Shown: piece after piece, positions 45,580-63,075 of the stretch
Position numbering within the stretch: position 1 is the stretch's first letter
How the letters are laid out: each line of letters opens with the position of its first letter
Assembly: GCA_028130375.1 (NCBI GenBank)
Contig: GCA_028130375.1_3658.1
DNA: 64,000 nucleotides
From: a phage
Strand: one strand, 5' to 3'
Program-made: the position numbers and the translations under genes
The notes under the pieces: generated by a model
The model's database searches: none
What the model was told of the DNA's origin: nothing
Seen by the model: the letters and a program-made list of their open reading frames with translations, nothing else

Positions 45580-46005
45580 ATGACCTATGAAATGCCAAAA
45601 CTGATTCGTGACGATGCCCAAAACGCCCACACCTTTATCATGGGCAAACGCATGGATATTATTTGTCATAAAGATTTCTGGGAAGGGAGTTACTTCACAG
45701 AGTATTTTGGTAAACTGGACAATGGTCTGCTGATCCAGCTCTACACCGATGCGGAAAACAACATTCACTGGGAGTTCGAAACTGAAGATATCCATAAACT
45801 TTTCACCTTCCTCGGTATTAAGGTTGAGGCCAAGTTTGAAGAAGGTGAGTGCGACGATTGTGGATTCTATGAGGTAACAGATTTCTATCTCCCGAGTGGT
45901 GAGAACCTTTACTATGAAAGCCACTTCGGTAACTCCAATATGCCACAGTGCTGGACTGAGTTTTTTGAAATTGCGGAAGAGGAGCTGGCATACCGTGATT
46001 ATTGA
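45580..46005 (+). CDS. Hypothetical protein
   Basis: 141 aa, RBS ggagaa. Confidence 0.45.
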   Translation: MTYEMPKLIRDDAQNAHTFIMGKRMDIICHKDFWEGSYFTEYFGKLDNGLLIQLYTDAENNIHWEFETEDIHKLFTFLGIKVEAKFEEGECDDCGFYEVTDFYLPSGENLYYESHFGNSNMPQCWTEFFEIAEEELAYRDY

Positions 46006-46453
46006 TACTGTAGAGGGGGATTTAATCTCCCTTTTTAAGAGCGGTGCTGGTCACCTGATCCACGGTTGCAACTGCTTCCACACAATGGGCAAGGGGATAG
46101 CAAAACAGATCGCCCGTGAGTTCCCTCAAGCACTGGCAGCTGACAAAGAGACCAGACATGGTTGCCTAAGTAAACTGGGCGCGTTCTCAAGATGGGAGCA
46201 CTTATCTCCGATAGGTATTGTCTACGGAATAAATCTGTATACTCAGTTCTACCCAGGGCCTAATGCTGAATATTTCTCAATCCTGAAAGGCTTTGAGCGA
46301 GTCAATGAGGTATTCGAGGGATCGACTTTACCATTCTACATCCCTAAGATCGGGTGCGGCATAGGCGGTTTGAAGTGGGAACACGTAGAGGACGTTATTA
46401 ACCTTGCCACTTTCGACATAGATATTGTCGTGGTGGAGTACAAAAAGTGTTGA
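45993..46453 (+). CDS. Macro-domain (ADP-ribose binding/hydrolase-like) protein
   Basis: GTG start after gaggag; GDL...HLIHGCNC...MGKGIAKQI and FYIPKIGCGIGGLK resemble the macro-domain signature segments. Confidence 0.55.
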
Positions 46454-48279: not shown

Positions 48280-48589
48280 TACTTGAAAATTCCTGGCATA
48301 TCAAGTGTAAGGAGGATTTCTAAAATGGATTTCCTCCTTTTGATATTTCACCGGGTTAGATATTTTAAAATTCTTAGAAAATCAGAAAATGGATCGAAAA
48401 CTAAAATGGATTTTTCAGAGCAGGCGCGACAAACCGAATCACTCATCCTATCGTTTGCACCATATTCCAGTCCACCATTACAGATTTCCCGCACATGCTT
48501 ACATCCTTCTACTGGAACTTCCTCCACTTACCCTTGACCTTTTATGGTAATAATCTAACCACTATCTTGAGGTTGCGGTACAGCTTTCC

Positions 48590-48770
48590 GGGTACTCGAT
48601 CTGTTTTTCGTTTCAAAGATTGAATTTTCTTAAAATTTTTCTCGATAAATTTCTCAGTACTCGATCTGTTTTTCGTTTTCTGAATCGGATTTTCTGGAAA
48701 TCGTTCCGGAGCTCGACCTGAAATTTTTGGGAACGAAATCGATTTTTCGTTTTCAGAAATGGATTTTTAA
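48590..48770. repeat. AT-rich direct repeats (tactcgatctgtttttcgttt x2 plus degenerate copy)
   Basis: Exact 21-bp repeat at about 48591-48611 and 48655-48675; related cgatttttcgttttc near 48740; aaatggattt motif recurs 4 times in 48320-48760. Confidence 0.6.
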
Positions 48771-48881
48771 AATTTCTATATGGGAATATTTTATGGGATA
48801 CTGTTTTATAGGAAATTGTTACGGAGGGTAATTAGCACGCTAATTAAATTTATTAAATGCGAGGAGTTCTCATTTAGAATT

Positions 48882-48900
48882 TTGAATGATAATCATTCTC
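48882..48900. promoter_or_regulatory. Fur-box-like operator (15/19 match to GATAATGATAATCATTATC)
   Basis: ttgaatgataatcattctc. Confidence 0.45.
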
Positions 48901-49016
48901 GTTTGCAGAATAACGGGCACCCCCGGTGATTGTCTCCCGGCCCCTGTTGCCCCGGCTTGTTATTATAGTATCACACAGGACAAAGAAGGCAAGGATTTTT
49001 TGCATAAATTTTTAAA

Positions 49017-49035
49017 TGATAATGATAACCGTTCT
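49017..49035. promoter_or_regulatory. Fur-box-like operator (16/19 match)
   Basis: gataatgataaccgttctc; followed, like the first copy, by a GC-rich about 35-bp element. Confidence 0.45.
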
Positions 49036-49055
49036 CATTTTATGCAGCGCCCATC

Positions 49056-49090
49056 CCCGGTGGTTATCTCCCCCGTCACCGGTGCCTGCC
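49056..49090. repeat. GC-rich dispersed element (inverted copy at 58031-58066, partial copy at 48918-48945)
   Basis: ccggtggttatctcccccgtcaccggtgcctgccg versus reverse complement of 58031-58066 (about 31/35 identical). Confidence 0.55.
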
Positions 49091-49529
49091 GTCCTTTCGA
49101 TAGGTATATTGTGCCACCTGGCGGGGCCGCTGTCAACACCTTTCAAAAAAAATTATAACCAGGTGCGCCCACTGCCAGGACCTGGCGGGGCCAGTCTGGC
49201 AGGGGAGAGTGAAAGCTTGCAAACCTGGTAGGGCTATGCTATAGGGTAGGCAACAACTGGAGAGGAGGTACAAAAATGAAAGGTAATATGATCCCCTGGA
49301 AAATGTAGCGACTAATGACGCTGAGGCTATCGCCATGGTTGAAAAGGCTATGGCGGGAGCGTTGGAACATAAAGAAGAGTACGAAAAAATGGTGGTTAAC
49401 CTGGCGGGGGCGGCAGGTGGATTCTATCATAAAAATAATTTAAAATAGTCGTTGACAACAAGGTTAATCATGGTATTATTACCCTACAAGGTGAACAACA
49501 CCGCACTAACCAGTAAAGAGGATAAATTT

Positions 49530-49727
49530 ATGAACGCATACGGGATCAAAGTACGTCGCAACACTCGCCAGGTGGTCACCAATCAAGTGATTTGCCGGGT
49601 GGATGTAACCATCAACAACGGGCAAGGCCTTTATAAATTTCGTCGCGGTCATAGCTATACCCTGCAACAGCTTAATCGTTGCGCCCTGACAAAAGGTCAG
49701 ATCAACCACTGGTTTAATAAAAAATAA
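49530..49727 (+). CDS. Hypothetical small protein (first gene of small-gene cluster)
   Basis: ATG 49530 after aaagaggataaa; upstream TTGACA at 49463-49468. Confidence 0.35.
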   Translation: MNAYGIKVRRNTRQVVTNQVICRVDVTINNGQGLYKFRRGHSYTLQQLNRCALTKGQINHWFNKK

Positions 49728-49791
49728 GTATTGACATATAGTCCGACACCAAATACACTAAAAGCACAAAAGACACTAAGAGGATAAAATC

Positions 49792-50190
49792 ATGAAAACC
49801 ACTACCTTTAATTTTGATAATGCAGACTTTTCTTTTTCTGATGTCAAGAACTGCCGCCGTGATCGTGGATTTTACAAGGCTTATAATCTGGTGGGCCTGG
49901 ACGATGACAATAATTTGCACGAAGTAGCTGAGATCCGGTATTATGCCGCCGCCAGCGGGAACACTTACTACTGCGTTTTTTGGATACACGACAACAAGAA
50001 CAATAAGTACGGCTATACTGGCGGCAAGGCGAGCGGTCACGGTTATGATAAAGCTAACGCAGCACTTGAGAGCGCATTAAATGCTATGGGGATCACTGCC
50101 GACGGCTGGATCTACGAAGAAGAGTTTTTGTCGGCACTTGCTGACCACCTAGGCTATAAAAAGCACATTGTAACATGCGCCCACGAATAA
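49792..50190 (+). CDS. Hypothetical protein
   Basis: 132 aa; preceded by TTGACA..TACACT promoter and conserved UTR aagaggataaaatcATG. Confidence 0.5.
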   Translation: MKTTTFNFDNADFSFSDVKNCRRDRGFYKAYNLVGLDDDNNLHEVAEIRYYAAASGNTYYCVFWIHDNKNNKYGYTGGKASGHGYDKANAALESALNAMGITADGWIYEEEFLSALADHLGYKKHIVTCAHE

Positions 50191-50272
50191 AAATCATTGA
50201 CACGCTGCAAAATTTAAGTAAACTAGACACAAAAGGCGGGAATGTTTCCCGCCAGCACAAAGGAAAAAGATC

Positions 50273-50677
50273 ATGAATAAGAACGTACGCCGCATCATGA
50301 ACGAGTTGGCAAACGATGAAAAAATTATTGACATGCATTTGATCAACATTTGCCGCCGTTGTGTAACATATAACAACCGCGCCGCAAAAGCGCGTGAGAT
50401 GAACGCAAAAGGCACCTTAAAGCCATTCCAGGTGGTGGTAAAGGCCATTAAAGATGTAACTAATACGGCAAACCAGGTACAGGGGAACACCAACGAGAGT
50501 ACCAATATTGATCCAGCTTACATCATGAAACGGATCCGGACCTGCAAGAACAAAGAGCAAGTGTATAATGTCATAGACTGGTTGGATTCTATGGGCGATG
50601 TGGTTTACAATAGGTTTTCTGCAGCTATCGAGATCCAGCTTGACAGGTTGGACGGTAAAGTACTGAAAACTTACTAA
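50273..50677 (+). CDS. Hypothetical protein
   Basis: 134 aa; cassette TTGACA-16-TAAACT, hairpin ggcgggaatgtttcccgcc, SD, ATG. Confidence 0.5.
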   Translation: MNKNVRRIMNELANDEKIIDMHLINICRRCVTYNNRAAKAREMNAKGTLKPFQVVVKAIKDVTNTANQVQGNTNESTNIDPAYIMKRIRTCKNKEQVYNVIDWLDSMGDVVYNRFSAAIEIQLDRLDGKVLKTY

Positions 50678-50678
50678 G

Positions 50679-50725
50679 TTTATTTTTAGATGGCCTTGAC
50701 TTCAGGGCCATCAATAAAGTAAACT
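50679..50725 (+). repeat. Promoter-bearing stem-loop repeat, copy 1
   Basis: ttatttttagatggccttgacttcagggccatcaataaagtaaact; 7-bp stem gatggcc / ggccatc with TTGACT in the loop, TAAACT downstream. Confidence 0.65.
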
Positions 50726-50757
50726 AATCTCAACTAAGCGAAAAAGGGGGCTTTAAG

Positions 50758-50877
50758 ATGAGCACTACACGCCAATACACAAAGGTAACTATTATCGTTT
50801 GCGTTGTCGGTTACATCCTGGCGCAAATGTTAATGAGTAGCGCTAACAGTTTTGCAAAATTTTTCTTAAATTTTTAA
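50758..50877 (+). CDS. Tiny hydrophobic peptide (39 aa)
   Basis: Unlisted short ORF after the repeat; RBS aaaaaggggg; sequence MSTTRQYTKVTIIVCVVGYILAQMLMSSANSFAKFFLNF. Confidence 0.3.
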   Translation: MSTTRQYTKVTIIVCVVGYILAQMLMSSANSFAKFFLNF

Positions 50878-50956
50878 TTGACAAACTGACTTAGATCGAT
50901 ATACTTAAACACGTAAACGGGAAAACTTCCCAGAGCACACAAAAGGAGAAAACACC

Positions 50957-51298
50957 ATGACTACTATGACCGCCGCAGAAAAAGCTATGCAGATCGCCGC
51001 GCTGAAAAAACAGATCGCAGACCTTGAGAACAAGATCGATAACTTTGAAATCGACGAGGACAAGTACGACGAAAACTATGATGAATGGTTAGACGAGATC
51101 TACGGCGAAATTATGATCGGAAACATTTCTTTTCTTCCGTCGCGTATCCTCAAGGAGCTAGATCCTATCGCTTACCGCTGCGGATTTGGCGACTACATCG
51201 ACAGCCTGGATATTGAGGACGATGAAGAATACCAGGAACTACAGACAGAGTTAGAAGAAGCAAAAGAAGAGCTTGCGGAGCTGGAAGAAAACGAGTAA
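50957..51298 (+). CDS. Hypothetical acidic protein
   Basis: 113 aa, Asp/Glu-rich C-terminus; cassette TTGACA-16-TATACT + hairpin + aaaaggagaaaacaccATG. Confidence 0.5.
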   Translation: MTTMTAAEKAMQIAALKKQIADLENKIDNFEIDEDKYDENYDEWLDEIYGEIMIGNISFLPSRILKELDPIAYRCGFGDYIDSLDIEDDEEYQELQTELEEAKEELAELEENE

Positions 51299-51300
51299 GA

Positions 51301-51346
51301 TTATTTTTAGATGGCCTTGACTTCAGGGCCATCAATAAAGTAAACT
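51301..51346 (+). repeat. Promoter-bearing stem-loop repeat, copy 2
   Basis: Identical to copy 1 over about 46 bp, directly after the 51298 stop. Confidence 0.65.
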
Positions 51347-51387
51347 TTATACTGTTAACACTGAACTAATTCAGAGGAGTTAAAACC

Positions 51388-51633
51388 ATGGCAGCACTAA
51401 TCACCAAATATTATGCCCCTACCAACACCAAAAGCGCCCGTATCATGGTAAAAGGCTTCGGACGTAAAAAGGTTTACACCTGGGATTATGCCTTAGACAC
51501 GGAAGACAACTACACCAACGCGATGACCGATTTTATTAATGATCTGAACACGCGGATCTTGACAAATTATAAAATTACCGATATTGCCTATATAGGGGAA
51601 GGCGGGATCTGTTTTGTCGGTATCGTCAAATAA
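51388..51633 (+). CDS. Hypothetical protein
   Basis: 81 aa with RBS gaggag. Confidence 0.5.
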   Translation: MAALITKYYAPTNTKSARIMVKGFGRKKVYTWDYALDTEDNYTNAMTDFINDLNTRILTNYKITDIAYIGEGGICFVGIVK

Positions 51634-51709
51634 GCTGTTTTTTCGGTGGTCCTGGTAGCAGGGCCATCTATAAAGATAGTTTATCAACACAATGAAAGGA
51701 GAAAGTAAC

Positions 51710-52063
51710 ATGATCAGCGGGGCAAGTTTTATTATTGGCGCTATTGCTACGGCTTTAATTGTAAACAAGATCCAATCCAAAAACGAAAAAGAGAGCAACG
51801 CGCTTACAGAATACCCATTTTGGGTATTCAACGACAATGAAGACTACATTATCAAGTACAAGGATGAGAAAGGGGACCAGGTAACACCGAGACCGATCCC
51901 AGCTTACAAGATGCAAGAAACATTATACCGCTTAAAGGCTGGCGGCGCAAAAATCGTAGACTTTTGGGGATATGATTGCAAGGATCAGGAGACTATAAAA
52001 CGTCGTATCCGGGCGATTCAGGCAAATATTGAGATCAGTAAAGGGGGCGTTTATGAAAATTAA
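51710..52063 (+). CDS. Putative membrane protein
   Basis: ATG 51710 after aaaggagaaagtaac; N-terminal TM-like ISGASFIIGAIATALIV. Confidence 0.45.
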   Translation: MISGASFIIGAIATALIVNKIQSKNEKESNALTEYPFWVFNDNEDYIIKYKDEKGDQVTPRPIPAYKMQETLYRLKAGGAKIVDFWGYDCKDQETIKRRIRAIQANIEISKGGVYEN

Positions 52064-52250
52064 TTTCGAAAAAATTGTAAAGCGCCCCCACGATTCCGAA
52101 GAGCTGCCGGAACGCCGCCAGCGTAACAATAAACTGAATAAACCGAAAAGGTTCGGGAAGATCTGGAGAAATCACTATGATCGCAAATTACCGAGCCTGC
52201 TTTTGGAACGTGAACGACAGGCGGAACGATACCGCCACAAAGACAAATAG
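52053..52250 (+). CDS. Small highly basic protein
   Basis: About 65 aa rich in Arg/Lys (KRPHDSEELPERRQRNNKLNKPKRFGK); followed by a terminator hairpin at about 52268-52297. Confidence 0.4.
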   Translation: MKINFEKIVKRPHDSEELPERRQRNNKLNKPKRFGKIWRNHYDRKLPSLLLERERQAERYRHKDK

Positions 52251-52495
52251 CAACCAACGCCCCGCCATTGTGAGGGGCTTTTTATTTCTATCCCGCCGAT
52301 AGCGCCCCTGGTTGGCCCTACAAGCGCCATAAAGGCCCCTACCTATGCAATCCCCTTTCTTAACCTGAAAACAGCGTCTAGGGCCGTTTTATGGCGTTAA
52401 AAATATTATTGACAGTGATTCTATTTAAAGCTTGACACCTTGGGATAGTCCGGATATACTAACCACATCAAAGCAAGAAGGAAGGAGTAAACGCC

Positions 52496-52756
52496 ATGCG
52501 TAAATTAAAAAATTTTGATAAAGTCGATGTTGTCCTGAATAATTTTTACTACTGCAATAATAAAGCCGTTTGGTGGCGTGATAGTTCCACCGATAAAGTT
52601 AAAGCGCGCTTTCTCCAAGGGCACTGGCAAGGCCGTCCAGTGATTAAAATCCTGGGGCAATTGGTAGCGTTTAAAAATTGCCGCCGTGTTGATGACGTTG
52701 AAGAGATTCTAAACATTTTACGCCACAATAATTTAAAAAATAGTGTTGACAAGTAA
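52496..52756 (+). CDS. Hypothetical protein
   Basis: 86 aa; cassette TTGACA-17-TATACT upstream. Confidence 0.5.
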   Translation: MRKLKNFDKVDVVLNNFYYCNNKAVWWRDSSTDKVKARFLQGHWQGRPVIKILGQLVAFKNCRRVDDVEEILNILRHNNLKNSVDK

Positions 52757-52830
52757 GTCTCAATAAGTATACTTAAACACACAGGCGGGAAGTTTTCCCG
52801 CCACTAACAAAGAAAATAGGAGAAAATATC

Positions 52831-53454
52831 ATGACCACCGTTAACATTACTACAGGTTACAATTTATCTTTCGACGTGCTGACCGGCGAACAAAAAGAAA
52901 AAGCTGTTGAAATGGTCCGCGAAAGAGAAGAACACAGCGGGGATAACTTTTTTGCAGAAAGTGTAATTGAGTACTATAAAGAATATGTTTTTCCAGAGTA
53001 TGGCCTTGAAGATACCGAAATACATTGGTCCGGCTTTTGGTGTCAAGGCGACGGCGCATCAATTAGCGCTGAAAATGTAAACTTAGAAAAATTCTTGCGT
53101 AAGGTTAAAGCGCTTACAAAATTCCGCTTAATTAGACACTTGTTCGGCACAATGCATGATGGCGAACTGTCAGCCAGCGTTGAACGTATCCCGTTTAGCC
53201 ATTATCATCACGAAAACACAATAGGCGGGTGCATCGATACCAATTGGCTAGACCTGACCACCAAGCAAGAGGATAAAGTTGAAGAGCTGGAAGAGCTGAT
53301 CACCGAGACGGTACGGGAGTTATCCCGCAAGGTTTACGTAGACCTGGAGCAAGCCTATCTTGAACAATTCACCACCGAAAACCTGATCGGCCTTATCGAG
53401 GCCAATGATTGGCGGTTTGATGTGGATGAATATGGCGAGATGACTTTTTCATAA
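52831..53454 (+). CDS. Hypothetical protein
   Basis: 207 aa; cassette TTGACA-16-TATACT, hairpin ggcgggaagttttcccgcc, aaataggagaaaatatcATG. Confidence 0.55.
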   Translation: MTTVNITTGYNLSFDVLTGEQKEKAVEMVREREEHSGDNFFAESVIEYYKEYVFPEYGLEDTEIHWSGFWCQGDGASISAENVNLEKFLRKVKALTKFRLIRHLFGTMHDGELSASVERIPFSHYHHENTIGGCIDTNWLDLTTKQEDKVEELEELITETVRELSRKVYVDLEQAYLEQFTTENLIGLIEANDWRFDVDEYGEMTFS

Positions 53455-53542
53455 ATAAAGTGTTGCAATAACCTAAAAACCTGCTATATTAGAACTCAAG
53501 GGGCAAGAAGTTTGCCCCACACAAAACAAAGAGGAAAACATC

Positions 53543-53923
53543 ATGAAAAGCACCACTAAAGCCATTGACACCGTTATGTTTAACCTGGTTACCTTTCGCG
53601 AGGATATGAAAGATCTTCCACGTGAAACAGTGCGCGATCACATTGAAAACTATCGCAAACTAATCAAAGAGTTGCCTTTAAAACGTGACCAGTACGCGGC
53701 TAACGCTATGCTTAACGCTATGATCAAGAAAATGATCCAGTGTGATTTGACTTTAGCTTATGATTATGCAGGTGGTCGTTTTGCAGTATACAATCAGCCC
53801 GTGCCCGGTATGAGCACCACCGAAGAATTGCACGCGTTAAATCTGAAACAAGATGTATGGGATAACATGCCCCGCGTGGTGGTGTGGGCAGAAAGCGGAA
53901 AGATTTACGGCGATAATTTTTAA
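53543..53923 (+). CDS. Hypothetical protein
   Basis: 126 aa; upstream hairpin ggggcaagaagtttgcccc and aaagaggaaaacatcATG. Confidence 0.5.
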   Translation: MKSTTKAIDTVMFNLVTFREDMKDLPRETVRDHIENYRKLIKELPLKRDQYAANAMLNAMIKKMIQCDLTLAYDYAGGRFAVYNQPVPGMSTTEELHALNLKQDVWDNMPRVVVWAESGKIYGDNF

Positions 53924-53987
53924 TCAGGTAACAGGCGGCATATTTGCCGCCTTATTGTTAAACAGAACTGCAAAAGAGGTACATAGA

Positions 53988-54359
53988 ATGGAATTTATTA
54001 TTTTGGCTGTAGTAGTTGCCTTGTTCAACGCCTGGATAGCTGGCAAAATAGGTAGATCCGCTTTTCTATGGTTTGTTATATCTATTTTCCTGGGAGTGGT
54101 TGCAACCATTGTACTAGTTATCCTTGCAATTGTTGACAAGGATAATAATAAGAAGGGTAAAGTATTTTCCGACCTGTATGACGCCCAAACTTTTGTTAAC
54201 GCCTATTATAGTGATCTTCCGGTCTCCTTGCGCTGCAGCCTGGCGCAACAAGTTTTTGATGAGGCTAAAACCAGAGATCAAGCCCATGAGATATGTTTAA
54301 CTGAGGCGGATCGCCTATTTGAGAGGAATAGAAAATATGTGGGCCAACCGTTTAAATAA
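53988..54359 (+). CDS. Putative membrane protein (2 TM)
   Basis: ATG 53988 after aaagaggtacatagA; MEFIILAVVVALFNAWIAGKIG and FLWFVISIFLGVVATIVLVILAIV. Confidence 0.45.
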   Translation: MEFIILAVVVALFNAWIAGKIGRSAFLWFVISIFLGVVATIVLVILAIVDKDNNKKGKVFSDLYDAQTFVNAYYSDLPVSLRCSLAQQVFDEAKTRDQAHEICLTEADRLFERNRKYVGQPFK

Positions 54360-54582
54360 TGCCACGTTAATTAATCCCTTTAGTGAAGATTTGAAGCCAG
54401 CCGCCTGGCGTGACGGATTCAATAACGAACGCTTTATTTTCAGGCCTGATCTTGAGGAATTTTATAACAATGGATCGAACAACAGCGGAGATAATTTTTC
54501 TTGTGGTGTGTGTCGTGATGGTACTCCTGGGGGCCATTGTAAACCACGTCACTACTACCAGGAGGAAAGGGGGAGACGATGA
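54337..54582 (+). CDS. Hypothetical small protein
   Basis: ATG 54337 after gagaggaa; overlaps an alternative-frame ORF, so it is uncertain. Confidence 0.3.
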   Translation: MWANRLNNATLINPFSEDLKPAAWRDGFNNERFIFRPDLEEFYNNGSNNSGDNFSCGVCRDGTPGGHCKPRHYYQEERGRR

Positions 54583-54837
54583 CAACCAAGGATAAGCCAT
54601 GCACCGATAAGGTGCGCCGCGTTATGGTATGGCTTGAGATTATCGCCCTTGAAATATTGCTAGGAGTAGGGATGTACTTTATCGCTGTAAGTAACTAGGA
54701 ACGGCCCCCGATCATGGGGGCCTATCTTTTTAAAAAATTTTTCTTCCGTGGTGTTGCAATCCGGTCCGGAATGTGGATAATAACAATCAACGGGGAGCTA
54801 ATCCCCACCACCACAAAAACCAGAAAGGAGAAACAAA

Positions 54838-55038
54838 ATGAGCAACAATATCCGCGTTATTAACTTCAAAAAAGAAGAAAAAATTGCCGTGCTGATTGAC
54901 GGTCAAGAAATCTTCAAGGGCGACTATGAAGATCATCAAACGGCGATTAGTATCACTCGCGTGATTGGTTACCATAATTTTTACCCCCAAGGCGCTGAGG
55001 CAGCGGTTAAACGAATCAAAGAGATTGTAGGCCTGTAA
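54838..55038 (+). CDS. Hypothetical small protein
   Basis: 66 aa; promoter TTGCAA..GATAAT, hairpin ggggagctaatcccc, aaaggagaaacaaaATG. Confidence 0.5.
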   Translation: MSNNIRVINFKKEEKIAVLIDGQEIFKGDYEDHQTAISITRVIGYHNFYPQGAEAAVKRIKEIVGL

Positions 55039-55041
55039 AAT

Positions 55042-55085
55042 TTATTTTTAGATGGCCTTGACTCCAGGGCCATCAATAAAGTAAA
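55042..55085 (+). repeat. Promoter-bearing stem-loop repeat, copy 3
   Basis: Same element with one substitution in the loop (ttgactcc vs ttgacttc). Confidence 0.65.
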
Positions 55086-55131
55086 TTTAAACCCTGTTAA
55101 AATACCACACAGTTAACAAGGAGTGATAGAC

Positions 55132-55431
55132 ATGTTTATCCAGGCTAATAATCTTTATTTCTTTGATGGTCAGATCGTAGATGGTGTGGAAGTGGAGATC
55201 ACCGGGTGCCCTGGCGGTCAGGCTATGACTTTTCGGAATAATGCCTTTGATGATTCTCATATCGTTATGAGAATGGAAGTTACGAAGCTGGACGACAAGA
55301 AAACACTTATTGACTATTCTGTGAAAGATCATCCAGACTACCGCATGATCCATGGCGATTTGTGCATTGTTGACCGTGACAAGGTGGGCGGCATTGTGAT
55401 CGCTATTGTGAACGATGTTTTCTCAAACTAA
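55132..55431 (+). CDS. Hypothetical protein
   Basis: ATG 55132 after aaggag. Confidence 0.5.
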   Translation: MFIQANNLYFFDGQIVDGVEVEITGCPGGQAMTFRNNAFDDSHIVMRMEVTKLDDKKTLIDYSVKDHPDYRMIHGDLCIVDRDKVGGIVIAIVNDVFSN

Positions 55432-55448
55432 TTTCAGCAGGCGATTTT

Positions 55449-55799
55449 ATGAAAGTCAAACTATATTACCTTAATGAGCTTAACCCCCTTGCCCAGGTCC
55501 GCGCCCTAGCTAATACCTTGATTTGTGAGAAATCTGTATATTGTGTTGAGCTTAACGCCATGCGTGAACGTCTCAAAGGTGGTTACTTTGACATCCATGC
55601 TGCAATCAACGGCCTGAATATAGAATTTATACGCTTACGTAACAGCCGCCGGAATCTGGCAAGAATGGAACAAGATCCGGCCCACCTTCGTAAGCTGGTT
55701 ATTGAAAATCATCTGATGTTTAATGCCGAGGGTGATTATTACCATTTTCACCGCAAACGCTGGTACCGTGGCGGCAATACAGGCAAGAATGCAAAATAA
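55449..55799 (+). CDS. Hypothetical protein
   Basis: 116 aa; followed by terminator hairpin aggctatgc-aat-cgcatagcct at about 55836-55866. Confidence 0.5.
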   Translation: MKVKLYYLNELNPLAQVRALANTLICEKSVYCVELNAMRERLKGGYFDIHAAINGLNIEFIRLRNSRRNLARMEQDPAHLRKLVIENHLMFNAEGDYYHFHRKRWYRGGNTGKNAK

Positions 55800-56001
55800 G
55801 GCCCCAGGCAGGGCCTACAGCGACCTAAACACTAGCAGGCTATGCAATCGCATAGCCTTTATTGTTTTGACGTTACAACGGCCCTAAGGTGCTTAAAAAA
55901 AAATTTTAAATAAAGGCTTGCATCAAGTCGAACAATATGGATAATAAGAGGTGTAGGGAGGTGATGCCTCCAATCATTAACAAAAACAGGAGTTAAAGAA
56001 T

Positions 56002-56286
56002 ATGGCTATTGTTACCGCTGGCGATGTAGTAAAAATGGAAGCGAAGTATTTAAAAGCTGGTATGCATATCATCCGCAATGATCTTGAACTGGTCCTCACT
56101 ATGGTTGATTATAACCCTGGTCAAGATTATCCAAGTGTTGACTACTTTTTTGAGTATGTCGATGAAGAGCTAAAAGAGGATGAGGCCTACTGCGGAGAAT
56201 TCTGCAACTACTTTTGCCCTGACGAGGTTGTAAAAGTTATCTACCAACCTGGCGTACCTTTCCCGCTACACGCTATCAATAAATAA
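56002..56286 (+). CDS. Hypothetical protein
   Basis: 94 aa; promoter TTGCAT-17-(G)ATAAT at about 55919-55950. Confidence 0.5.
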   Translation: MAIVTAGDVVKMEAKYLKAGMHIIRNDLELVLTMVDYNPGQDYPSVDYFFEYVDEELKEDEAYCGEFCNYFCPDEVVKVIYQPGVPFPLHAINK

Positions 56287-56341
56287 ACCCGGCGGGGCCG
56301 AAAAGGCCCCCAATTATGAAAATAAAGAGAGGTAAATCATC

Positions 56342-56575
56342 ATGATGGAACAAATTAAACGCACTGAGGCTATTAATGGCAATGTGATCTATTTTGTCAG
56401 CAAAAACGAAAAAGGCGTACCCTATGCGGCGGTAACAGTACAACCTGACGGCGATTATTGGTTTACTGTGTACGGCGCTTATTCTTTTGGGCGTCCAGTG
56501 CATGATAAAATTTTGAAAGTAGCGAACCCTACCGGGAAGAATATCACAGCAGAAAAATTTTTTGAAAATAGTTGA
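56342..56575 (+). CDS. Hypothetical protein
   Basis: 77 aa, RBS agagaggtaaa. Confidence 0.5.
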   Translation: MMEQIKRTEAINGNVIYFVSKNEKGVPYAAVTVQPDGDYWFTVYGAYSFGRPVHDKILKVANPTGKNITAEKFFENS

Positions 56576-56650
56576 CATGACCATATAAGACTGTAATATA
56601 TAAATCAAAGGGGGCAACAAGCCCCACCAACCACAAAGAGGATAAAAATC

Positions 56651-56830
56651 ATGGCTATTATTGCAAAGACTGAGATCGTAGGCTTAGATTCTATTCTCCT
56701 CGCATATGAGGAAGCTATAGAAATGTATGTGGTTTCCTATGGTGAGTATATCCGTGAATATAAATCTATTGATCTGGCTTTTGAATGTTATATTCGCCAG
56801 GTTAATAAAGCGTACGATGATTATCGTTAA
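56651..56830 (+). CDS. Small hypothetical protein (59 aa)
   Basis: Unlisted short ORF with full cassette TTGACA..TAATAT, hairpin, acaaagaggataaaaatcATG. Confidence 0.35.
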   Translation: MAIIAKTEIVGLDSILLAYEEAIEMYVVSYGEYIREYKSIDLAFECYIRQVNKAYDDYR

Positions 56831-57035
56831 AATAGTTTGACAACAAACAACCATCTAACAAAGCATAATACATAAGGTGGTAGAATGATCCGCCACCCGG
56901 AACAAAGAAGAGGTAAACACCATGAAACAAAAATTAATTGATGCTGTGATCCTGGTTATTGCCCTGGGTATTGGCCTGATTGCAACCATGGCTAATATGA
57001 TCTTGTCTTCCAACGGTATCTGGTGAGGTTGGCAA

Positions 57036-57251
57036 ATGATCACTAACAAAACAGGCAAAACAGAATTTTTACGCAACTTACAGATCGGCAAGCCTGAGAT
57101 CTGGTATTGCACTAAAACACCACGTGACGAAATGAAAGACTTCACCGCCACGTTGCAACGGGTAAAGATATCCATCACGCAGAAAAAGGCCTTATTAGTG
57201 GTGGAAGGTGAGATCCCCCAAACCGTTGTTATAGTTGAGCGTACAGCATAG
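57036..57251 (+). CDS. Hypothetical protein
   Basis: 71-aa ORF. Confidence 0.4.
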   Translation: MITNKTGKTEFLRNLQIGKPEIWYCTKTPRDEMKDFTATLQRVKISITQKKALLVVEGEIPQTVVIVERTA

Positions 57252-57342
57252 TTTAATTTATACCGATACCCGAAAATTAACCAACAAAGCATAAACAGGC
57301 GGTTACCGCCGCCTTAAACGTAGCAGAAAGAGGATAGACACA

Positions 57343-57627
57343 ATGAAAAAGATGATCGCAGTGGTTGCCCTGGTTGTTGGACTTAATGCGCCTGTAATGG
57401 CTAAAGAGCTGGCAAAAGAGGTTAATCTAACGGATATTCATGCCGTCAATAAAATCGGGGTTACTTATCGCTTATGCCTTGCCGCTAAAACTTTCCAGGA
57501 CGGCACGACAGAGTACTACGGATTCGAGGGTATCCGGTGCGGTGAGCTTGCTCGCGACCTTAAGGAAGATCCAGACCTGGAAGATCTGCCCATCACCGTA
57601 AACGGTAAAGCTTACGTAAACCGTTAA
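57343..57627 (+). CDS. Small secreted/periplasmic protein (signal peptide)
   Basis: 94 aa; MKKMIAVVALVVGLNAPVMAKE looks like a Sec signal; RBS agaaagagga. Confidence 0.5.
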   Translation: MKKMIAVVALVVGLNAPVMAKELAKEVNLTDIHAVNKIGVTYRLCLAAKTFQDGTTEYYGFEGIRCGELARDLKEDPDLEDLPITVNGKAYVNR

Positions 57628-57779
57628 CCATGAGAAAGATAATCATCACCTTGGGGATTGTGGCGGGATCGCTGGCGCTCTTTCCCCTTATGGTTAGGTA
57701 TGTGCTGATCAGTATTGTCCTGGTAGTCAGTGATCTATTGGAAACGGTTGGCACCTTGTTTTAAAGAGCGATAAAAAAA

Positions 57780-57971
57780 ATGAATGTCGAACAAGTTAGA
57801 AAGGTATTGGCGGTACTGCGTTATCATAATCATAGAAAGGTCATAGACGATCCTGATTATGTCGATTCAAACCTGGAAGAGGATACACTACAAGCCATAA
57901 GTAACATGCAAGAATTGCTAAAGCGCATGACAGAGAAAAACCGACCGGACTACATAGGCGAAAAAATATAA
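57780..57971 (+). CDS. Hypothetical small protein
   Basis: 63 aa; followed by hairpin aaaacagg..cctgtttt + T-run at about 57986-58015. Confidence 0.4.
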   Translation: MNVEQVRKVLAVLRYHNHRKVIDDPDYVDSNLEEDTLQAISNMQELLKRMTEKNRPDYIGEKI

Positions 57972-58030
57972 TATTTATAAACTACAAAACAGGGCTTGCA
58001 ATGGTCCTGTTTTTTGTTATACTTATTCCA

Positions 58031-58066
58031 CGGCAGGCACCTGGCGACGGGGGAGACAATCACCGG
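58031..58066. repeat. GC-rich dispersed element, inverted copy
   Basis: Reverse complement matches 49056-49090. Confidence 0.55.
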
Positions 58067-58181
58067 GCCTGCCTGTCATATAAGAACTATAAAAACCGTT
58101 GACATCTGCCATGGGGTGGGGTAACATTTATCTTGAAGGGGCAAAAGTGCCCACACAACAACCAGGAGAGAGGAAAACATT

Positions 58182-58454
58182 ATGTCAAGCTGGATTAATC
58201 AAGAAGTCGAATCACGTTTTAATGCTATATGGGATCTCATCGAAAAAGAGGACGGAACATCAAGCCCCTACCTCAACAATTTGGAATTCCATTTTGTGGA
58301 AGCGATGAACGCAGAACATGATCACGAAGGTGGCGCGGATGAGTTCGCTAAAGGTTATGGCTTTAACAATGCCAACGAAATGATCGAGGCGGTAGTACTC
58401 CAGGCTGAGGAAGATTATCAATTAAAAACGCTTGAATTCTGCCGCCGTAAGTAA
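58182..58454 (+). CDS. Hypothetical acidic protein
   Basis: 90 aa; promoter TTGACA-17-TAACAT at about 58086-58114. Confidence 0.5.
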   Translation: MSSWINQEVESRFNAIWDLIEKEDGTSSPYLNNLEFHFVEAMNAEHDHEGGADEFAKGYGFNNANEMIEAVVLQAEEDYQLKTLEFCRRK

Positions 58455-58514: not shown

Positions 58515-58733
58515 ATGACAACCCGTAAAATTAAAGTTGTTTGCATTGAATCGACTGGGGGCGCTTTTGTAGTTGGTCAGGAATATAATGCGGTTTTAAT
58601 GGGTACGGATTGGAAGGTTAAAGGCCTTAATGGTTACGAGTACGGCACTACTTGCGGCTTGCGTGGTCGAATCGGATACGTGAGTTTAGACAATAAAGAA
58701 AAATTTGTTTTCGACACCCTTGTGAGTAAATAG
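58515..58733 (+). CDS. Hypothetical small protein
   Basis: 72-aa ORF. Confidence 0.45.
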   Translation: MTTRKIKVVCIESTGGAFVVGQEYNAVLMGTDWKVKGLNGYEYGTTCGLRGRIGYVSLDNKEKFVFDTLVSK

Positions 58734-58810: not shown

Positions 58811-59074
58811 ATGAAACGTCTGGATCAGCTTAAATTAGTTCAGTACATGGCCTACAGAATTCTTGAAGTCCAAAAAGGTAGCAAAAAAGAGGTTTGCGAG
58901 AAAGCTTATAAGATCTTTACCCGCAAAAAAGATGACTGGATGCTGCGCCAGACCAAAAAGGCTGACATCTTGGGGTACCTGGAAGAAGAGATCCGCCTTG
59001 AAGAGCAAGAAGAGATCCGCCGTAGTGAGGCAGATTATCAGGCAGCTTGGGAAAGCTGGATGAGTAACAAATAA
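58811..59074 (+). CDS. Hypothetical protein
   Basis: 87-aa ORF. Confidence 0.5.
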   Translation: MKRLDQLKLVQYMAYRILEVQKGSKKEVCEKAYKIFTRKKDDWMLRQTKKADILGYLEEEIRLEEQEEIRRSEADYQAAWESWMSNK

Positions 59075-59217: not shown

Positions 59218-59637
59218 ATGAACATTAAATCTAATAATCCGGCATATAGCTTTGATAACGCTTTTTGTCACGGTCCGGCGGCGAAAGGATTCGAAATCGA
59301 TGGTAAACTAATTATTGTCAATGTTGACGGGGAAGAGGTTGCAGTATATCCGGTGGCAGACGTAAAAAGTCGTTTACAATGCCGCATGGATGTTACCGCC
59401 TACCAGCTTGATCCGGTCCGCATAGTTGCCCTGGTCCTGGAAGGAGAAATTAAAGCCATGCACCATAGCAACAGGTTTATTGGTGACGCTCAGGATAATA
59501 TGAAAGTATGCCGCCATAAAGTTAATGAAGTGCTTAAAGAGTACGGCTATAAAGATCTTATGATCAAACGTGAGGAAAAATTCCGCTACCGTAACGACCT
59601 GGCAAATCGGATTTTTGAAATATACGAATCATTATAA
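59218..59637 (+). CDS. Hypothetical protein (last gene of cluster)
   Basis: 139 aa; promoter TTGACA-17-TATATT at about 59141-59169; terminator hairpin aaggggcttaggcccctt + T-run at 59655-59680. Confidence 0.5.
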   Translation: MNIKSNNPAYSFDNAFCHGPAAKGFEIDGKLIIVNVDGEEVAVYPVADVKSRLQCRMDVTAYQLDPVRIVALVLEGEIKAMHHSNRFIGDAQDNMKVCRHKVNEVLKEYGYKDLMIKREEKFRYRNDLANRIFEIYESL

Positions 59638-60298
59638 TTTTTAACTGAATTATCAAGGGGCTTAGGCCCCTTTCTTTTTGTCTGCTCTTCCCCCCTACCA
59701 TAAACGGCCCTACCTGGCAAGTGGAATAATTGACGAGCCATCAATCCCACACACTGTACAAATATACATGTAAAATAGCTATTGCATAACCTTTCATTGT
59801 GTGGTAGCGGTGCTATTTTTTACCCGTTTTCCTTCCAAAATTGCACGTAATGCAGTTATTGCACAAAATTTAACCTGATGCACATCTTCAATATCTTGTC
59901 AACAACTAAAAATCTTTATAAGTCATACACTTACACAAACCAAAGAGCGTGTTCTACGTGAAAAATCGAGTATAACTATAGCCGCCAGATCTCAGAATTT
60001 ACGTACGCTCGCCATTCTATAGCCTGCTAAGCATTTATTCCAACCATAGAATAACGGAATAGTCAATACCTGCATAAAATAATTATTCGTGTAAACTGCA
60101 TAACATAAATCAGCTTAGGTGTCAACATTTTTCGTAAACAGTCTGAAATTATCACGGTGAGTTATCATAAACAGAGAAATCTTTAGTCGTCTAATGTTTA
60201 CTGTACGTTACTATACTAACTGAAATCATTAGATGACTAATAGAAAGATAAGAAATAATTAACAATACAATTATTTTATCTGTAACAATAAGGCAACT

Positions 60299-60530
60299 AT
60301 GCAAACGAATGGCATGGCGCGACGGAGTCGCGACATAATATAAAAGCAGTAACCATCACCCCCGTGATAGTTTGTCTGCAAACTATTAATCAGATCATAG
60401 TTGCCTTGTATTTAGTTAATCATGACATAACAAGCAAGGCAACTATAGATCTTCTAATAGTTGCCCTGCTTTTATATTATGTCATAGATTATTAACTTGC
60501 TAATAGTTATCATGCAAACGAATGGCATGG
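60299..60530. repeat. Nested inverted/direct repeat block (GGCAACTAT arms; 20-bp direct repeat atgcaaacgaatggcatggc)
   Basis: ggcaactat at about 60292 and 60437 with reverse complement atagttgcc at about 60399 and 60458; exact 20-bp direct repeat at 60299-60318 and 60511-60530. Confidence 0.6.
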
Positions 60531-60533
60531 CTT

Positions 60534-60608
60534 ATCATTTCCATGTAAACTGTCAAGGTGTAAACTATCCAGGCGTAAACAGTCTATGCGGGAACAATCT
60601 ATACGTGA
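60534..60608. repeat. Iteron-like tandem array (5 copies, period about 15 bp, core GTAAAC-W-GTC)
   Basis: gtaaactgtcaagg / gtaaactatccagg / gtaaacagtctatg / gaacaatctatacg / gtgaacagtgaaac; further GTAAACAG copies near 60100, 60136, 60907, 61676. Confidence 0.6.
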
Positions 60609-61254
60609 ACAGTGAAACATGAAATAATAACAGTCGTTATTGTTCCATATTGTGTCATAGTATGTCACCATTATGTCTAAAGTGTCTAAGGTGTCAGACA
60701 AGTTTTTCTCCTCTTTGTCAAGTGCTGCATGAAAAATTTACAATCTTGTATGGTAGCATTTTTGCGGCCATGTTTACATTCAGCGATGTATGTATAAGCC
60801 TTGTTGTGTGGGCGTTTAGACGTCTAGACGGTTGGAAGTCCACAGGTCAATATCTAATCTATCGGCTGCTAACTATATCCCACACAAATAGTAATAAATA
60901 TAATTGTTATATGCGTAAACAGTAACTCATGTTATCAATCCCTGTATGTATCGCCAGTGGTGCGCATAATGGGTATTATGTTAAATTGCCCGTAATGATA
61001 ACAGTTCTCACAATGATAGGTATTCTCATTCATCCACACAAAATAGGTTGCAAATGTTGTGCCACTGTGTGAACGGCCTGGCCTATTAATTTCTCTCACT
61101 GCCTCGATATTTGAGAATTGTTATAAGAATGAGAAGTATTCCCATTCCGTCCGCCTGGCAGCGCTCCTGTAGGTCCTGCAAGGACTCTAGCTGAAAGCTA
61201 GACCCTTCGGGCCTCCCTGTAGGTCAGGTCAAAATCGTGGCAGAACTGAGCCTG

Positions 61255-61470
61255 TTCAGATATTTCTGGCTGACTCTTCAGGTCTGTGTGGGAAAAGCCA
61301 ACCTCTCCGGCGGGGCAGGGGGAGGTCAATTAAAAAATTTACGTGGTGTATGAAGCGCTCTTCAGGTAAGGCAGGTATTATGGGATGAAACCCTCTTCAG
61401 GCAATGATATTTGTGGGTGTGATATTTGCTGGAAAGCCAGATATGACGGGACTCCCGGCGGGGCAGGGGT
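61255..61470. repeat. GC-rich direct repeats (CTCTTCAGG several copies; cYccggcggggcagggg x2)
   Basis: ctcttcagg at about 61275, 61349, 61393 (again near 61805); ccggcggggcagggg at 61307-61321 and 61455-61469. Confidence 0.55.
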
Positions 61471-62165
61471 AGTACAGACAGGGAAAATATGAGAATGTAG
61501 TTGGGGAAATTGATCAGACAGGTAGAGTATGGAATATGTTACAAGTATGTTAAATATGGAGGTTGAATATCTGTAGGATTTGTGTGTAAAATCAAAGACT
61601 TAAGGGGTGTTGTGGTATTTTCTATAAATAATTCAAGTTTAATAGGCAATATTTGTCTCTATCCGCTTTGTGTGGTAAACAGATTCAGATTAGATTGGTT
61701 TACAAGTGTATACATAATATACAAATTAAAGATACAAGAAACCCCCCTCCCCCCTTCGGCTACCATTCACCTTTTCCTCTGACTGGTACTTAAACACTTA
61801 TTCAGACTCTTCAGGTTATCACCCATATATCATATGGCAGTGACTGGTGTCCTCCGGCCCCTCTTTCGTCACCCGTCCGCTTCGCCATGCTAATGCCATA
61901 GCTAATGGTTCGGTTGTTCACCCTGTTCACTCAGGTGTATCTCTATACCCCTTCAAACCGAAGAGAACAGAAAACCCGAATTACTCGGTAAAAGAAAAGA
62001 GAAGAACTTAATTTTATCAGGATAGGCAAGAATGTCAAGGCATGACTGCTCACTAAACAAGCAAACAGTCATGTGTGGGAGGTAAGTGATTGTGGTGGTA
62101 GGAAATTTAGTTGAAAGATGTGTTATAGGTGCTTCCAGCACTTTAGCCGGGCAGCTAATTGTGTG

Positions 62166-62381
62166 TCAGTCCAGCGGTTCATCCTCTACTTCACTGAAAT
62201 CAATGTTCATGGTCTCTTCCCAACCATCGATCTCAGCACAAGAGTGGAGTTCTTTAGGGTTTACTCCCAAAGCCTCAGCAACAGAGTCTATATTTAACAC
62301 CTCTGGCAGGTATGATTCATCGAATTCAAGGTAAATCAGGCCACGAGTGTTGTCAGCTCCACCAAATATCTCTATCTTCAT
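62166..62381 (-). CDS. Hypothetical acidic small protein
   Basis: 71-aa ORF on - strand. Confidence 0.4.
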   Translation of the reverse strand: MKIEIFGGADNTRGLIYLEFDESYLPEVLNIDSVAEALGVNPKELHSCAEIDGWEETMNIDFSEVEDEPLD

Positions 62382-62502
62382 AAAATCTCCTCTGGGAATG
62401 AAAGTGTGAACAGGGTTTTATACGTTCTAATGCACAGGAATTATACACGTTTGCCTCTTCAGGCCATGCTTTAGCATGAGGAACCTGTGTGGGCTCGGTG
62501 CT

Positions 62503-62715
62503 TCATAGTCTACCACCTCTGAACTCTTCGTGCTCAGGCATAATAGAGAACCAGATATCTACGATGTCCTCCCACGTCAGGTCATCAGCCTCAGGATCTG
62601 TCTGGGACGAAGATGAAGAGTCCTCAGAATCTAAGTTTTCCTCTTTAACTGGCTCATCCAAGGGACATATGGTCACTCCTTCGGATGTCTCTTCAGATGC
62701 ATGTGTGTTGATCAT
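62503..62715 (-). CDS. Hypothetical acidic small protein
   Basis: 70-aa ORF; an overlapping + strand ORF also exists so strand is uncertain; - strand chosen to match neighbours. Confidence 0.3.
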   Translation of the reverse strand: MINTHASEETSEGVTICPLDEPVKEENLDSEDSSSSSQTDPEADDLTWEDIVDIWFSIMPEHEEFRGGRL

Positions 62716-63075
62716 GTTCCACCCGTGAGTATTCCGGCAACAGCCGCTATGGAAGTAATGATCATCAGGATCACCACTAAAACTTCAGACAATGTTCTCA
62801 TTGTGTATTCCATATTCTCCAAACTGTGTGTGGATACTATCACGGGAGCGGTAATGTGTCAACAGAAACGCCGCGAGGGTTTGGTTAAAATCCGAGCGTA
62901 TGGTGATTTGGGTCAAAACGGACGTGCGTTCTCGCTACGCTCGAAAGAGAGATTTGTTTGTAGGAAGCTCTTAAACGCTCTGTAATGAGATTATCTGTCC
63001 AAGGTATGCAATCGTGCACCAGATAAAGAAAAGGACGCCACAGAGCGTCCTAGGTGTCTTAAATTTGATATTTTG

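Follow-up and report, generated by a model that had tools for sequence, protein, structure and literature searches.

Analysis of a 64-kb stretch of phage DNA (64,000 nucleotides of contig GCA_028130375.1_3658.1, here called the window) indicates that a GC-rich sequence found at both ends of its small early gene cluster is best read as a conserved, promoter-linked transcribed element, of which the three copies, c1, c2, and c3, are instances, and not as a recombination site. The window comes from an rV5-like coliphage (Vequintavirus), with O157 typing phage 14, EduardKellenberger, and Gotham as the best matches. Every copy follows a sigma-70-type promoter that reads it on the G-rich strand, and the same arrangement recurs in several genera of related phages as well as in unrelated freshwater phages. 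We propose, with a probability of about 0.45, that promoter and element form a small early transcription unit yielding a structured RNA or leader of ∼50 nt. A trans-acting RNA is our first guess as to its function, and a cis-acting antiterminator is our second.

A search of both strands of the window for the core GGGAGAYAAYCACCGGG, with up to 3 mismatches allowed, found exactly three sites (Table 1), compared to a mean of 0.24 expected by chance; none of 100 shuffled sequences reached three. Inverted pairs I3 (29 nt, 86%) and I7 (25 nt, 88%) turned up independently in a repeat search. A preliminary description of this DNA had reported a GC-rich element in inverted orientation bracketing most of the small-gene cluster, and both the coordinates and the bracketing hold when checked against the bases, the pattern search, and the repeat search. 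The similarity between c2 and c3 is also real, but the reported 31 matches out of 35 are only approximate, since the sequences at 49056 and 58031 differ by an indel. What had been listed as a shorter copy at 48923-38 is present but is really a full third copy, c1, which has the same core and 3′ flank as the other copies and a different 5′ half. The copies appear inverted because c1 and c2 are leftward units at the left edge of the cluster, whereas c3 heads the last rightward early operon. Both c1 and c2 sit in a stretch of ∼900 bp (about 48540-49450) that is poor in open reading frames (ORFs) and divides a long plus-strand gene block from the plus-strand cluster of small early genes. This cluster extends to the terminator at 59655-59672, and c3 lies 1.6 kb before its right end. 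On the genome map of the rV5 paper there is a "non-coding" box, and no motif is described (PMC3606486). A scan of the window for tRNA and transfer-messenger RNA found none.

The promoters showed several regularities. First, on the G-rich strand each copy begins 6 to 8 nt past its −10 box; when the RNA start is placed 7 nt after the −10 box, it coincides with the base of the element for c3 and c1, and c2 would carry a 12-nt 5′ extension. Second, by inspection of the sequences, the −10 box and the core are 23 to 36 nt apart. Third, the c1 promoter is weaker than the others (8/12, below the threshold of the scan), and its position is conserved in all genera examined. Finally, the fusion of terminator and promoter seen at c3 is also found in CR8, POP17, phiWec188, and freshwater phages. 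The element thus lies on the non-template, G-rich strand right after a sigma-70-type promoter, and therefore host RNA polymerase should make an RNA that starts with the element. We conclude, from the sequence arrangement, that the G-rich strand is the one that would be transcribed.

TABLE 1 Positions of the element copies, their promoters, and neighboring features in the window
Feature	Position	Strand	Basis or remark
c1 core	48922-48938	−	GGGAGAYAAYCACCGGG pattern match
c2 core	49056-49072	−	GGGAGAYAAYCACCGGG pattern match
c3 core, GGGAGACAATCACCGGG	58051-58067	+	GGGAGAYAAYCACCGGG pattern match
c1, whole element	48908-48958	−	Predicted RNA start ∼48958; 3′ flank is GGGUGCCCGUUAUUC
c2, whole element	49042-49101	−	Predicted RNA start ∼49101, reads leftward; no credible ORF downstream
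c3, whole element	58030-58081	+	Predicted RNA start ∼58030
c1 promoter, TTGCCT (48987-92), 16 nt, TG-n-TACTAT (48965-70)	48965-48992	−	Read from sequence
c2 promoter, TTGACA-17-CACAAT, upstream TG	49108-49136	−	Promoter scan
c3 promoter, TTGCAA-16-TATACT, upstream TG	57996-58023	+	Promoter scan
Terminator hairpin and T-run of preceding gene	57986-58013	+	Overlapped by c3 promoter; TTGCAA in hairpin loop
Second promoter, TTGACA-17-TAACAT	58099-58127	+	Between c3 and first gene of last early operon
Last early operon	58182-58454, 58515-58733, 58811-59074, 59218-59637; terminator 59655-59672	+	Headed by c3
CCTGGCGGGGC site in GCCCCGCCAGG, GC-rich spacer of c2 promoter	49117-27	−	Promoter scan
CCTGGCGGGGC site	49181-91		Within GC-rich palindromic hairpin (49170-49205)
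CCTGGCGGGGC site	49400-10		Within small ORF
Fur-box-like palindromes, AAATGAGAAT-N-ATTCTCATTT type	48856-48900		Just past c1 in its transcription direction
Three 57-nt direct repeats (D4), starts 65 and 74 nt apart	48585-48780		CTCGATC-N-GTTTTTCGTTT, embedded GATC

The preliminary description had suggested looking for the element at module boundaries in related phages, and promoter-linked copies do occur across several genera. A 300-nt query matched 201 phage records, the distant ones over only ∼60 to 75 nt, that is, over the palindromes and the element. In loci with the same orientation as the window, the minus strand carries c1, behind a conserved, mostly TG-extended promoter, in Certrevirus (CR8, KaOmega, POP17, CB7, and F1M1E), Seunavirus (SSE121 and FENT2), Mydovirus (Seu621, Ro1, and AV124), unassigned Vequintavirinae (SSBI34), the Serratia phages Kashira and ChuuTotoro, and Stephanstirmvirinae (the Phapecoctavirus phiWec188). 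In these groups the predicted start falls at the base of the closing helix described below. An outward-facing c3, also fused to a terminator, lies ∼9.5 to 10.6 kb to the right in Certrevirus and phiWec188; Seu621 has its second copy in direct orientation, and the loci of SSE121 and the Serratia phages yielded no second copy. This means that the bracket around the cluster is old but not universal.

The element also occurs beyond the rV5 group. A 47-kb freshwater-phage contig present in two collections (UViG_3300027123_000194 = Ga0255090_1000022) has at least 5 copies, on both strands. The freshwater contig had no BLAST match among GenBank phages, and its ORFs matched no PHROGs families. IMG/VR contig UViG_3300046810_000101 also carries promoter and element, the 168-kb contig L039 has one copy, and further freshwater metagenome phage contigs have 5 to 6 copies per 12 to 13 kb. 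Nearly all of these follow one plan, namely a terminator, TATAAT, 6 to 7 nt, CAAUACCUG-AAAA-CGGGGGAGACAAnCACCGG-nnn-AGCCUGU, and a U-rich tract. Among bacteria, E. coli genomes gave no match to c3, and a pattern scan across 185,579 species genomes returned 5 hits, close to the chance expectation. Only one of these looks genuine, a contig of a Pseudobdellovibrionaceae genome bin with 2 copies; past each copy come a strong hairpin and, 3′ of it, a GUGCCAU that is the complement of the 5′ AUGGCAC. In Rfam 15, no family reached its gathering score in the window or in 12 related loci, and matches at E ≤ 10 were at chance level only.

The invariant columns of the element are A-A-n-C-A-C within (G)GAGACAAnCACC; the conserved stretch is AGACAAnCAC, which has the form GAGACAAnCACC in most copies. 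Read from the G-rich strand, the element probably folds as RNA, and four features bear on this. First, a closing helix is predicted between the 5′ end and the sequence 5 to 6 nt past the core, for example, GGCAGGC (58032-38) with GCCUGCC (58067-73) in c3 and AUAGCGGG/CCCGCUAU in CR8. In 12 diverged c1 sequences, this helix was 87.5% paired compared to 30 to 56% when the partner was slid, and its variation is mostly from G-C to G-U. Second, a small hairpin precedes the core. In c3 it is CCUG-GCGA-CGGG at 58040-51, abutting the core, and in c1 it is a CCGG/CCGG helix with an 11-nt loop immediately before the core. The loops found (GCGA, GUGA, GCAA, GGAA, AAAA, and AGAA) are often GNRA, and the stems include CCUG/CAGG, CUUG/CAGG, and CACCG/CGGUG. 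A hairpin of at least 4 bp ending no more than 2 nt from the core was present in 20 of 29 distinct variants, whereas shuffled sequences (n = 300) averaged 9.0 and never exceeded 14. Third, the c1-type stems differ between lineages yet are complementary (CCGG/CCGG, CCAG/CUGG, CGGG/CCCG, and GCGA/UCGC). Finally, 18 of the 109 hairpin pairs are G·U, which on the other strand would be C·A mismatches; therefore, the G-rich strand is favored as the RNA. The minimum free energy of c3 was −24.4 kcal/mol (z = −3.4), and CR8 c1 had a z score of −2.9.

Three other interpretations of the sequence were rejected. A small RNA made from the C-rich strand, with a hairpin, a linker, and, at c3, a bidirectional terminator, would need a conserved promoter that this strand does not have; in addition, Certrevirus has a one-directional terminator there, and this strand would lose the G·U pairs, as stated above. 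A −10-like sigma-dependent pause element (GACAAT) was rejected because its last T is not conserved, and a translated start at AUC was rejected because it is not conserved.

Of the 39 distinct instances linked to a promoter, a same-strand ORF within 400 nt (typically 105 to 225 nt away) is present in 23 and absent in 14. In the gene-associated cases that were read (window c3, L011, L014, and L039), the element and the gene are separated by a second promoter. Copies c1 and c2 are among the gene-less ones; in their leftward path lie palindromes, repeats, and the 3′ ends of plus-strand genes. Others, such as L014a and L057a, run straight into convergent terminators. The gene-less copies and the intervening promoters fit an independent small transcription unit better than a plain 5′ untranslated region (UTR), and we therefore prefer a short early RNA with a partner-binding invariant loop. 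Homologues in IMG/VR of the gene downstream of c3 (L026-L032) have a different context without the element and are uninformative. "Hypothetical protein" ORFs annotated across c1 and c2 (Gotham F10B_0202, L001 1886-2173; equivalents in many relatives) span promoters and element, and such GenBank ORFs are probably spurious.

The mechanism that we propose for this short early RNA is as follows. Host RNA polymerase would make a transcript whose first ∼50 nt are the element. The 5′ end would pair with the sequence just past the core to give the closing helix, with the small, often GNRA-looped hairpin in between, and the nearly invariant (G)GAGACAAnCACC(GG) would be displayed between the two helices. 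Promoter and element would thus be a small early transcription unit of their own, its product would be a short, abundant, structured RNA, and the invariant loop would bind a partner, protein or RNA, conserved across hosts or phages. Read-through into downstream genes would be incidental.

Several observations weigh against this proposal. Start sites and 3′ ends are sequence predictions, and the enterobacterial copies have no clear terminator past the element, so a discrete short RNA is not assured. The free energy z scores are unremarkable for most copies (mean, −0.77). There was no significant covariation, and shuffled sequences match the values observed for the closing helix. A fixed-register count of hairpin pairs on a MAFFT alignment gave no excess over slid or shuffled controls, since the 3′ arm belongs to a G-run, and RNAalifold on the MAFFT alignment found essentially no consensus structure. 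This absence of significant covariation, both by RNAalifold and by pair counts, limits the structural claim. The hairpin enrichment may be partly compositional, with the G-run of the 3′ arm pairing in several registers, and the conservation of primary sequence is equally compatible with a DNA-level signal. With respect to a partner, no complementary target was found in the window, and the complementarity of the conserved loop to E. coli rRNAs (16S, 23S, and 5S) and three tRNAs did not exceed that of shuffled queries. Even so, a conserved RNA structure is the best supported of the three options offered by the preliminary description, as every copy is promoter-proximal on the G-rich strand, although the structural support is only moderate.

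A bolder version of the proposal is possible, if doubtful: the element might be a new and widespread phage early RNA signal, either a processivity signal that virulent phages of many hosts employ, protein-independent like put or else similar to ops, or a multicopy decoy RNA whose invariant GAGACAAnCACC loop titrates a conserved host factor or defense protein, and in rV5-like phages it might be coupled to Fur-box-like operators.

Among the rival readings, the strongest is that the element is a cis-acting co-transcriptional signal on RNA polymerase for processive antitermination, anti-pausing, or attenuation, working as nascent RNA (as HK022 put does) or as non-template-strand DNA (as RfaH ops does), with the terminators of the early cassettes being read through. 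The element would sit at the extreme 5′ end of the transcript, like putL (PMC9378689), and its orientation relative to the promoter is strict while its distance varies. The early regions are crowded with promoter-terminator cassettes, and the operon headed by c3 has four genes. A universal target such as RNA polymerase would fit the conservation seen among phages that infect different hosts, and the freshwater G-run pairs either with an upstream CCUG or with a downstream CCUGU plus U-run, which is attenuator-like. We nevertheless consider a cis signal unlikely. About one-third of the copies have no gene to act on, including c1 and c2, which are antisense to plus-strand genes, and the two copies facing convergent terminators, and the second promoter cuts the element off from the gene in the gene-associated copies read. 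In addition, ∼50 nt with one closing helix is little like the ∼70-nt double stem-loop of put, the HK022 nun-PL region has no core-like sequence, and the core does not match ops.

Still less probable is a double-stranded DNA operator, a conserved site of 12 to 17 bp past early promoters that would be bound by a phage or host protein, for example, a roadblock repressor for shut-off. The flanking complementarity would then be incidental. Primary-sequence conservation, not covariation, is indeed the strongest signal, and other likely protein sites (the Fur-box-like palindromes and phased TGTAA repeats described below) lie nearby. However, the site is asymmetric, it always faces the same way with respect to the promoter, and its spacing from the promoter differs among copies by more than a helical turn. 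The G·U-compatible substitutions and GNRA loops of the adjoining hairpin point to RNA, and the flanks are wholly different between lineages yet self-complementary.

A 5′ stabilizer or ribosome-binding leader, in which a 5′-terminal helix and a Shine-Dalgarno-like GGGGGAG without a start codon would shield mRNA from RNase E and RppH, is very unlikely. Protection of mRNA of this type is provided by the ompA 5′ hairpin and the STAB-SD element. In most enterobacterial copies, the nucleotide predicted to be the first is base paired, the G-run together with GAG looks like a Shine-Dalgarno sequence, and the freshwater-phage element resembles a 5′ UTR of the same phage that has a Shine-Dalgarno sequence, minus the AUG. 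This reading leaves unexplained the invariant ACAAnCACC, the orphan copies, and the intervening second promoter.

The remaining options of the preliminary description were recombination sites, which would let the ∼9-kb segment invert, and the boundaries of an acquired module. A 1-kb query across c1, c2, and both flanks gave a single-piece alignment (at least 80% coverage) in 102 of 122 related phage records, and for a 0.8-kb query across c3 the count was 103 of 118. Had the segment inverted, these alignments would be interrupted at the element. In Gotham, EdH4, bov10K2, MaxBurger, and PMBT16, which were in both searches, the two sites are on the same strand and 8.6 to 9.4 kb apart, and the loci of CR8, KaOmega, POP17, and phiWec188 are collinear. 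No recombinase family (resolvase or integrase Pfam) was matched by the ten ORFs scanned, nine of the larger ones at 49.8 to 59.6 kb and one flanking, smaller ORFs being outside the scan. Both options are therefore without support: ∼100 relatives are collinear at both sites, and, with regard to a module, the outward-facing pair is kept in Vequintavirus, Certrevirus, and Phapecoctavirus, with a direct second copy in Seu621. Exchange between copies did leave traces. AlexBoehm (L055, minus strand, ∼480) has a single hybrid element in which the c2 promoter and 5′ half are joined to the c1 3′ half, the result of a ∼134-bp deletion through recombination between the direct copies c2 and c1. Likewise, L017 has a chimeric c2, and the GGGUG/GCCUG linker is swapped between c1 and c3 in the window and Gotham. 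These cases are ordinary homologous exchange between copies, as occurs for any repeat. Thus, although the copies are inverted around most of the small-gene cluster, recombine with one another, and at c3 have a terminator-promoter part resembling the T4-type cassettes that mediate shuffling (PMC4122927), inversion of the segment or its recent acquisition is highly improbable and already largely refuted by the absence of any inverted arrangement among those relatives, the persistence of the arrangement across subfamilies, the recombinase result (0 of 10), and the many other phages that carry the element as single or tandem promoter-linked copies.

The surroundings of the copies hold further repeated sequences. 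The motif CCTGGCGGGGC, reported as related to the element at ∼49120, 49183, and 49403, is real and over-represented (7 hits in the window at up to 1 mismatch compared to 0.41 expected), and the three sites were confirmed, but it is not a copy of the element (Table 1). Certrevirus has a similar promoter with a GC-rich spacer (TTGACG...CATAAT), which drives another conserved block of ∼110 nt. This promoter-proximal block, GGAGACGCCACCCCACGGCGAAAAGGCGGGGCUAAC...GGUCGGAAGGUGGAUCGCCGGUAG (L019 ∼12130-12245, minus strand; also L020-L023, L033-L036, and L050-L054), lies upstream of the c1 promoter in Certrevirus, Seunavirus, Mydovirus, and Phapecoctavirus and has no Rfam match; in the window, its place is occupied by c2. 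The hairpin at 49170-49205, CUGCCAG...CUGGCAG enclosing CUGG-CGGGG-CCAG, is rich in CCWGG (Dcm) sites; beyond it come a promoter-like site and a 10-codon ORF (49277-49309).

Compared with the 19-bp E. coli Fur box GATAATGATAATCATTATC, candidate Fur boxes match at 15 of 19 positions at 48882-48900 and at 16 of 19 at 49018-49036, after c2. As a conserved feature, such palindromes (14 to 16 of 19) follow c1 in every genus and, in Certrevirus, c3 as well. They form clusters of 4 to 5 in CR8 and phiWec188 (L019 11911-12020 and 22742-22766; L023 11858-12022), and on the opposite strand they fall within the spacer of a weak TTGAAT-18-CAGAAT promoter facing the element. The 57-nt repeats to the left of c1 look like iterons and mark a candidate origin or pac region; in Cronobacter phage CR8, the corresponding non-coding region (L019 ∼11700-11880) contains the same CTCGATC-N-GTTTTTCGTTT word three times. 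In genera other than Vequintavirus, two copies of TGTAAAGA with a spacing of 11 nt precede the c1 −35 box (L019, L021, and L020), and freshwater phages have TGTAAC-N5-TGTAAT downstream of the element (L011, L070, L073, and L082). These phased TGTAA repeats may be sites for a shared DNA-binding factor.

Farther from the element, the region at 59640-63000 has, past the last terminator, mostly minus-strand promoter-like sites and an ORF-poor stretch, and many GenBank records of this phage group begin near there. It contains a perfect 18-nt inverted repeat (60332-49/60466-83) and 34-nt direct repeats (60381-60414/60441-60474). On the plus strand, a 185-amino-acid ORF at 45896-46453 has a partial Macro-domain match (E = 3e-6).

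The early regions of large virulent phages are full of tiny genes whose functions are unknown, and little is understood of their regulation. A signal on a subset of early promoters in rV5-like, phi92-like, and unrelated freshwater phages, with copy numbers that reach dozens per genome, would point to a shared regulatory device or a shared small RNA, and it offers a concrete and cheap experimental target in well-used coliphages (the BASEL collection and the O157 typing phages). Searches of the literature for the motif sequence and for transcriptomics of the rV5 group found no description of it; a 2023 catalogue of >10,000 candidate viral RNAs may contain the element.

The element shares some features with known systems and differs from each of them. 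As in invertible segments of the Gin/Hin/Cin type, inverted repeats (I3 and I7) flank a segment, but only one orientation was seen among the relatives aligned here, and an adjacent recombinase gene was not found among the ten ORFs scanned. The ops sequence recognized by RfaH, GGCGGTAGnnTG, acts on the non-template strand of operon leaders. Like ops, the element is a short, orientation-specific, early transcribed leader sequence at a variable distance from its promoter; its core GAGACAAnCACC is unrelated to GGCGGTAGnnTG. The c1 hairpin loop of L003 and L017, GGCGGTAG, equals the first 8 nt of ops, lies outside the core (window c1 has GGCAACAG), and is probably a coincidental match. In the case of put, read-through of terminators in cis depends on the β′ zinc-binding domain. 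The put RNAs of HK022 are cis-acting antiterminators that follow sigma-70 early promoters in two divergent copies and need no adjacent protein gene (PMC9378689). The position directly after a predicted sigma-70 early promoter, at the transcript 5′ end (as for putL), and the two divergently oriented copies are shared with the element. However, put RNAs have two long stem-loops and a triplex within their ∼70 nt, compared to a closing helix, a 4-bp hairpin, and a conserved single-stranded core in the element; there is no sequence similarity, and many element copies have no downstream genes. Within the rV5 group itself, the pseudo-ToxI of Certrevirus phiTE is a phage small decoy RNA that binds a host protein (PMC3475682). 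The element would likewise be a non-coding RNA, although it has neither a sequence relation to ToxI nor tandem 36-nt repeats.

There is also a likeness in layout to the promoter-early stem-loop (PeSL) cassettes described from T4-like phages, which combine a promoter and a stem-loop and are recombining repeats (PMC2839356, PMC4122927). At c3 and in the freshwater copies, a terminator stem-loop is likewise fused to a sigma-70 promoter and repeated between small ORFs of a plastic early region, and the AlexBoehm deletion, which is like the deletions that PeSL cassettes mediate in T4-type phages (PMC4122927), is one clear case of repeat recombination. Terminator-plus-promoter cassettes also lie between other small early genes of the window (50675-50725, 51296-51346, 51631-51681, 55037-55087, 50215-50267, and 52764-52816; repeat families including D1 and D7). 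In these, the hairpin loop holds the −35 box and precedes the −10 box, which is PeSL-like. Unlike the arrangement seen here, in phages that are rV5-like and not T4-like, PeSL cassettes as described lack a third block that is strongly conserved, transcribed after the promoter, and common to unrelated phage groups. The terminator-promoter part of the arrangement is PeSL-like, and it is this conserved transcribed block, common to unrelated phage groups, that is the new feature.

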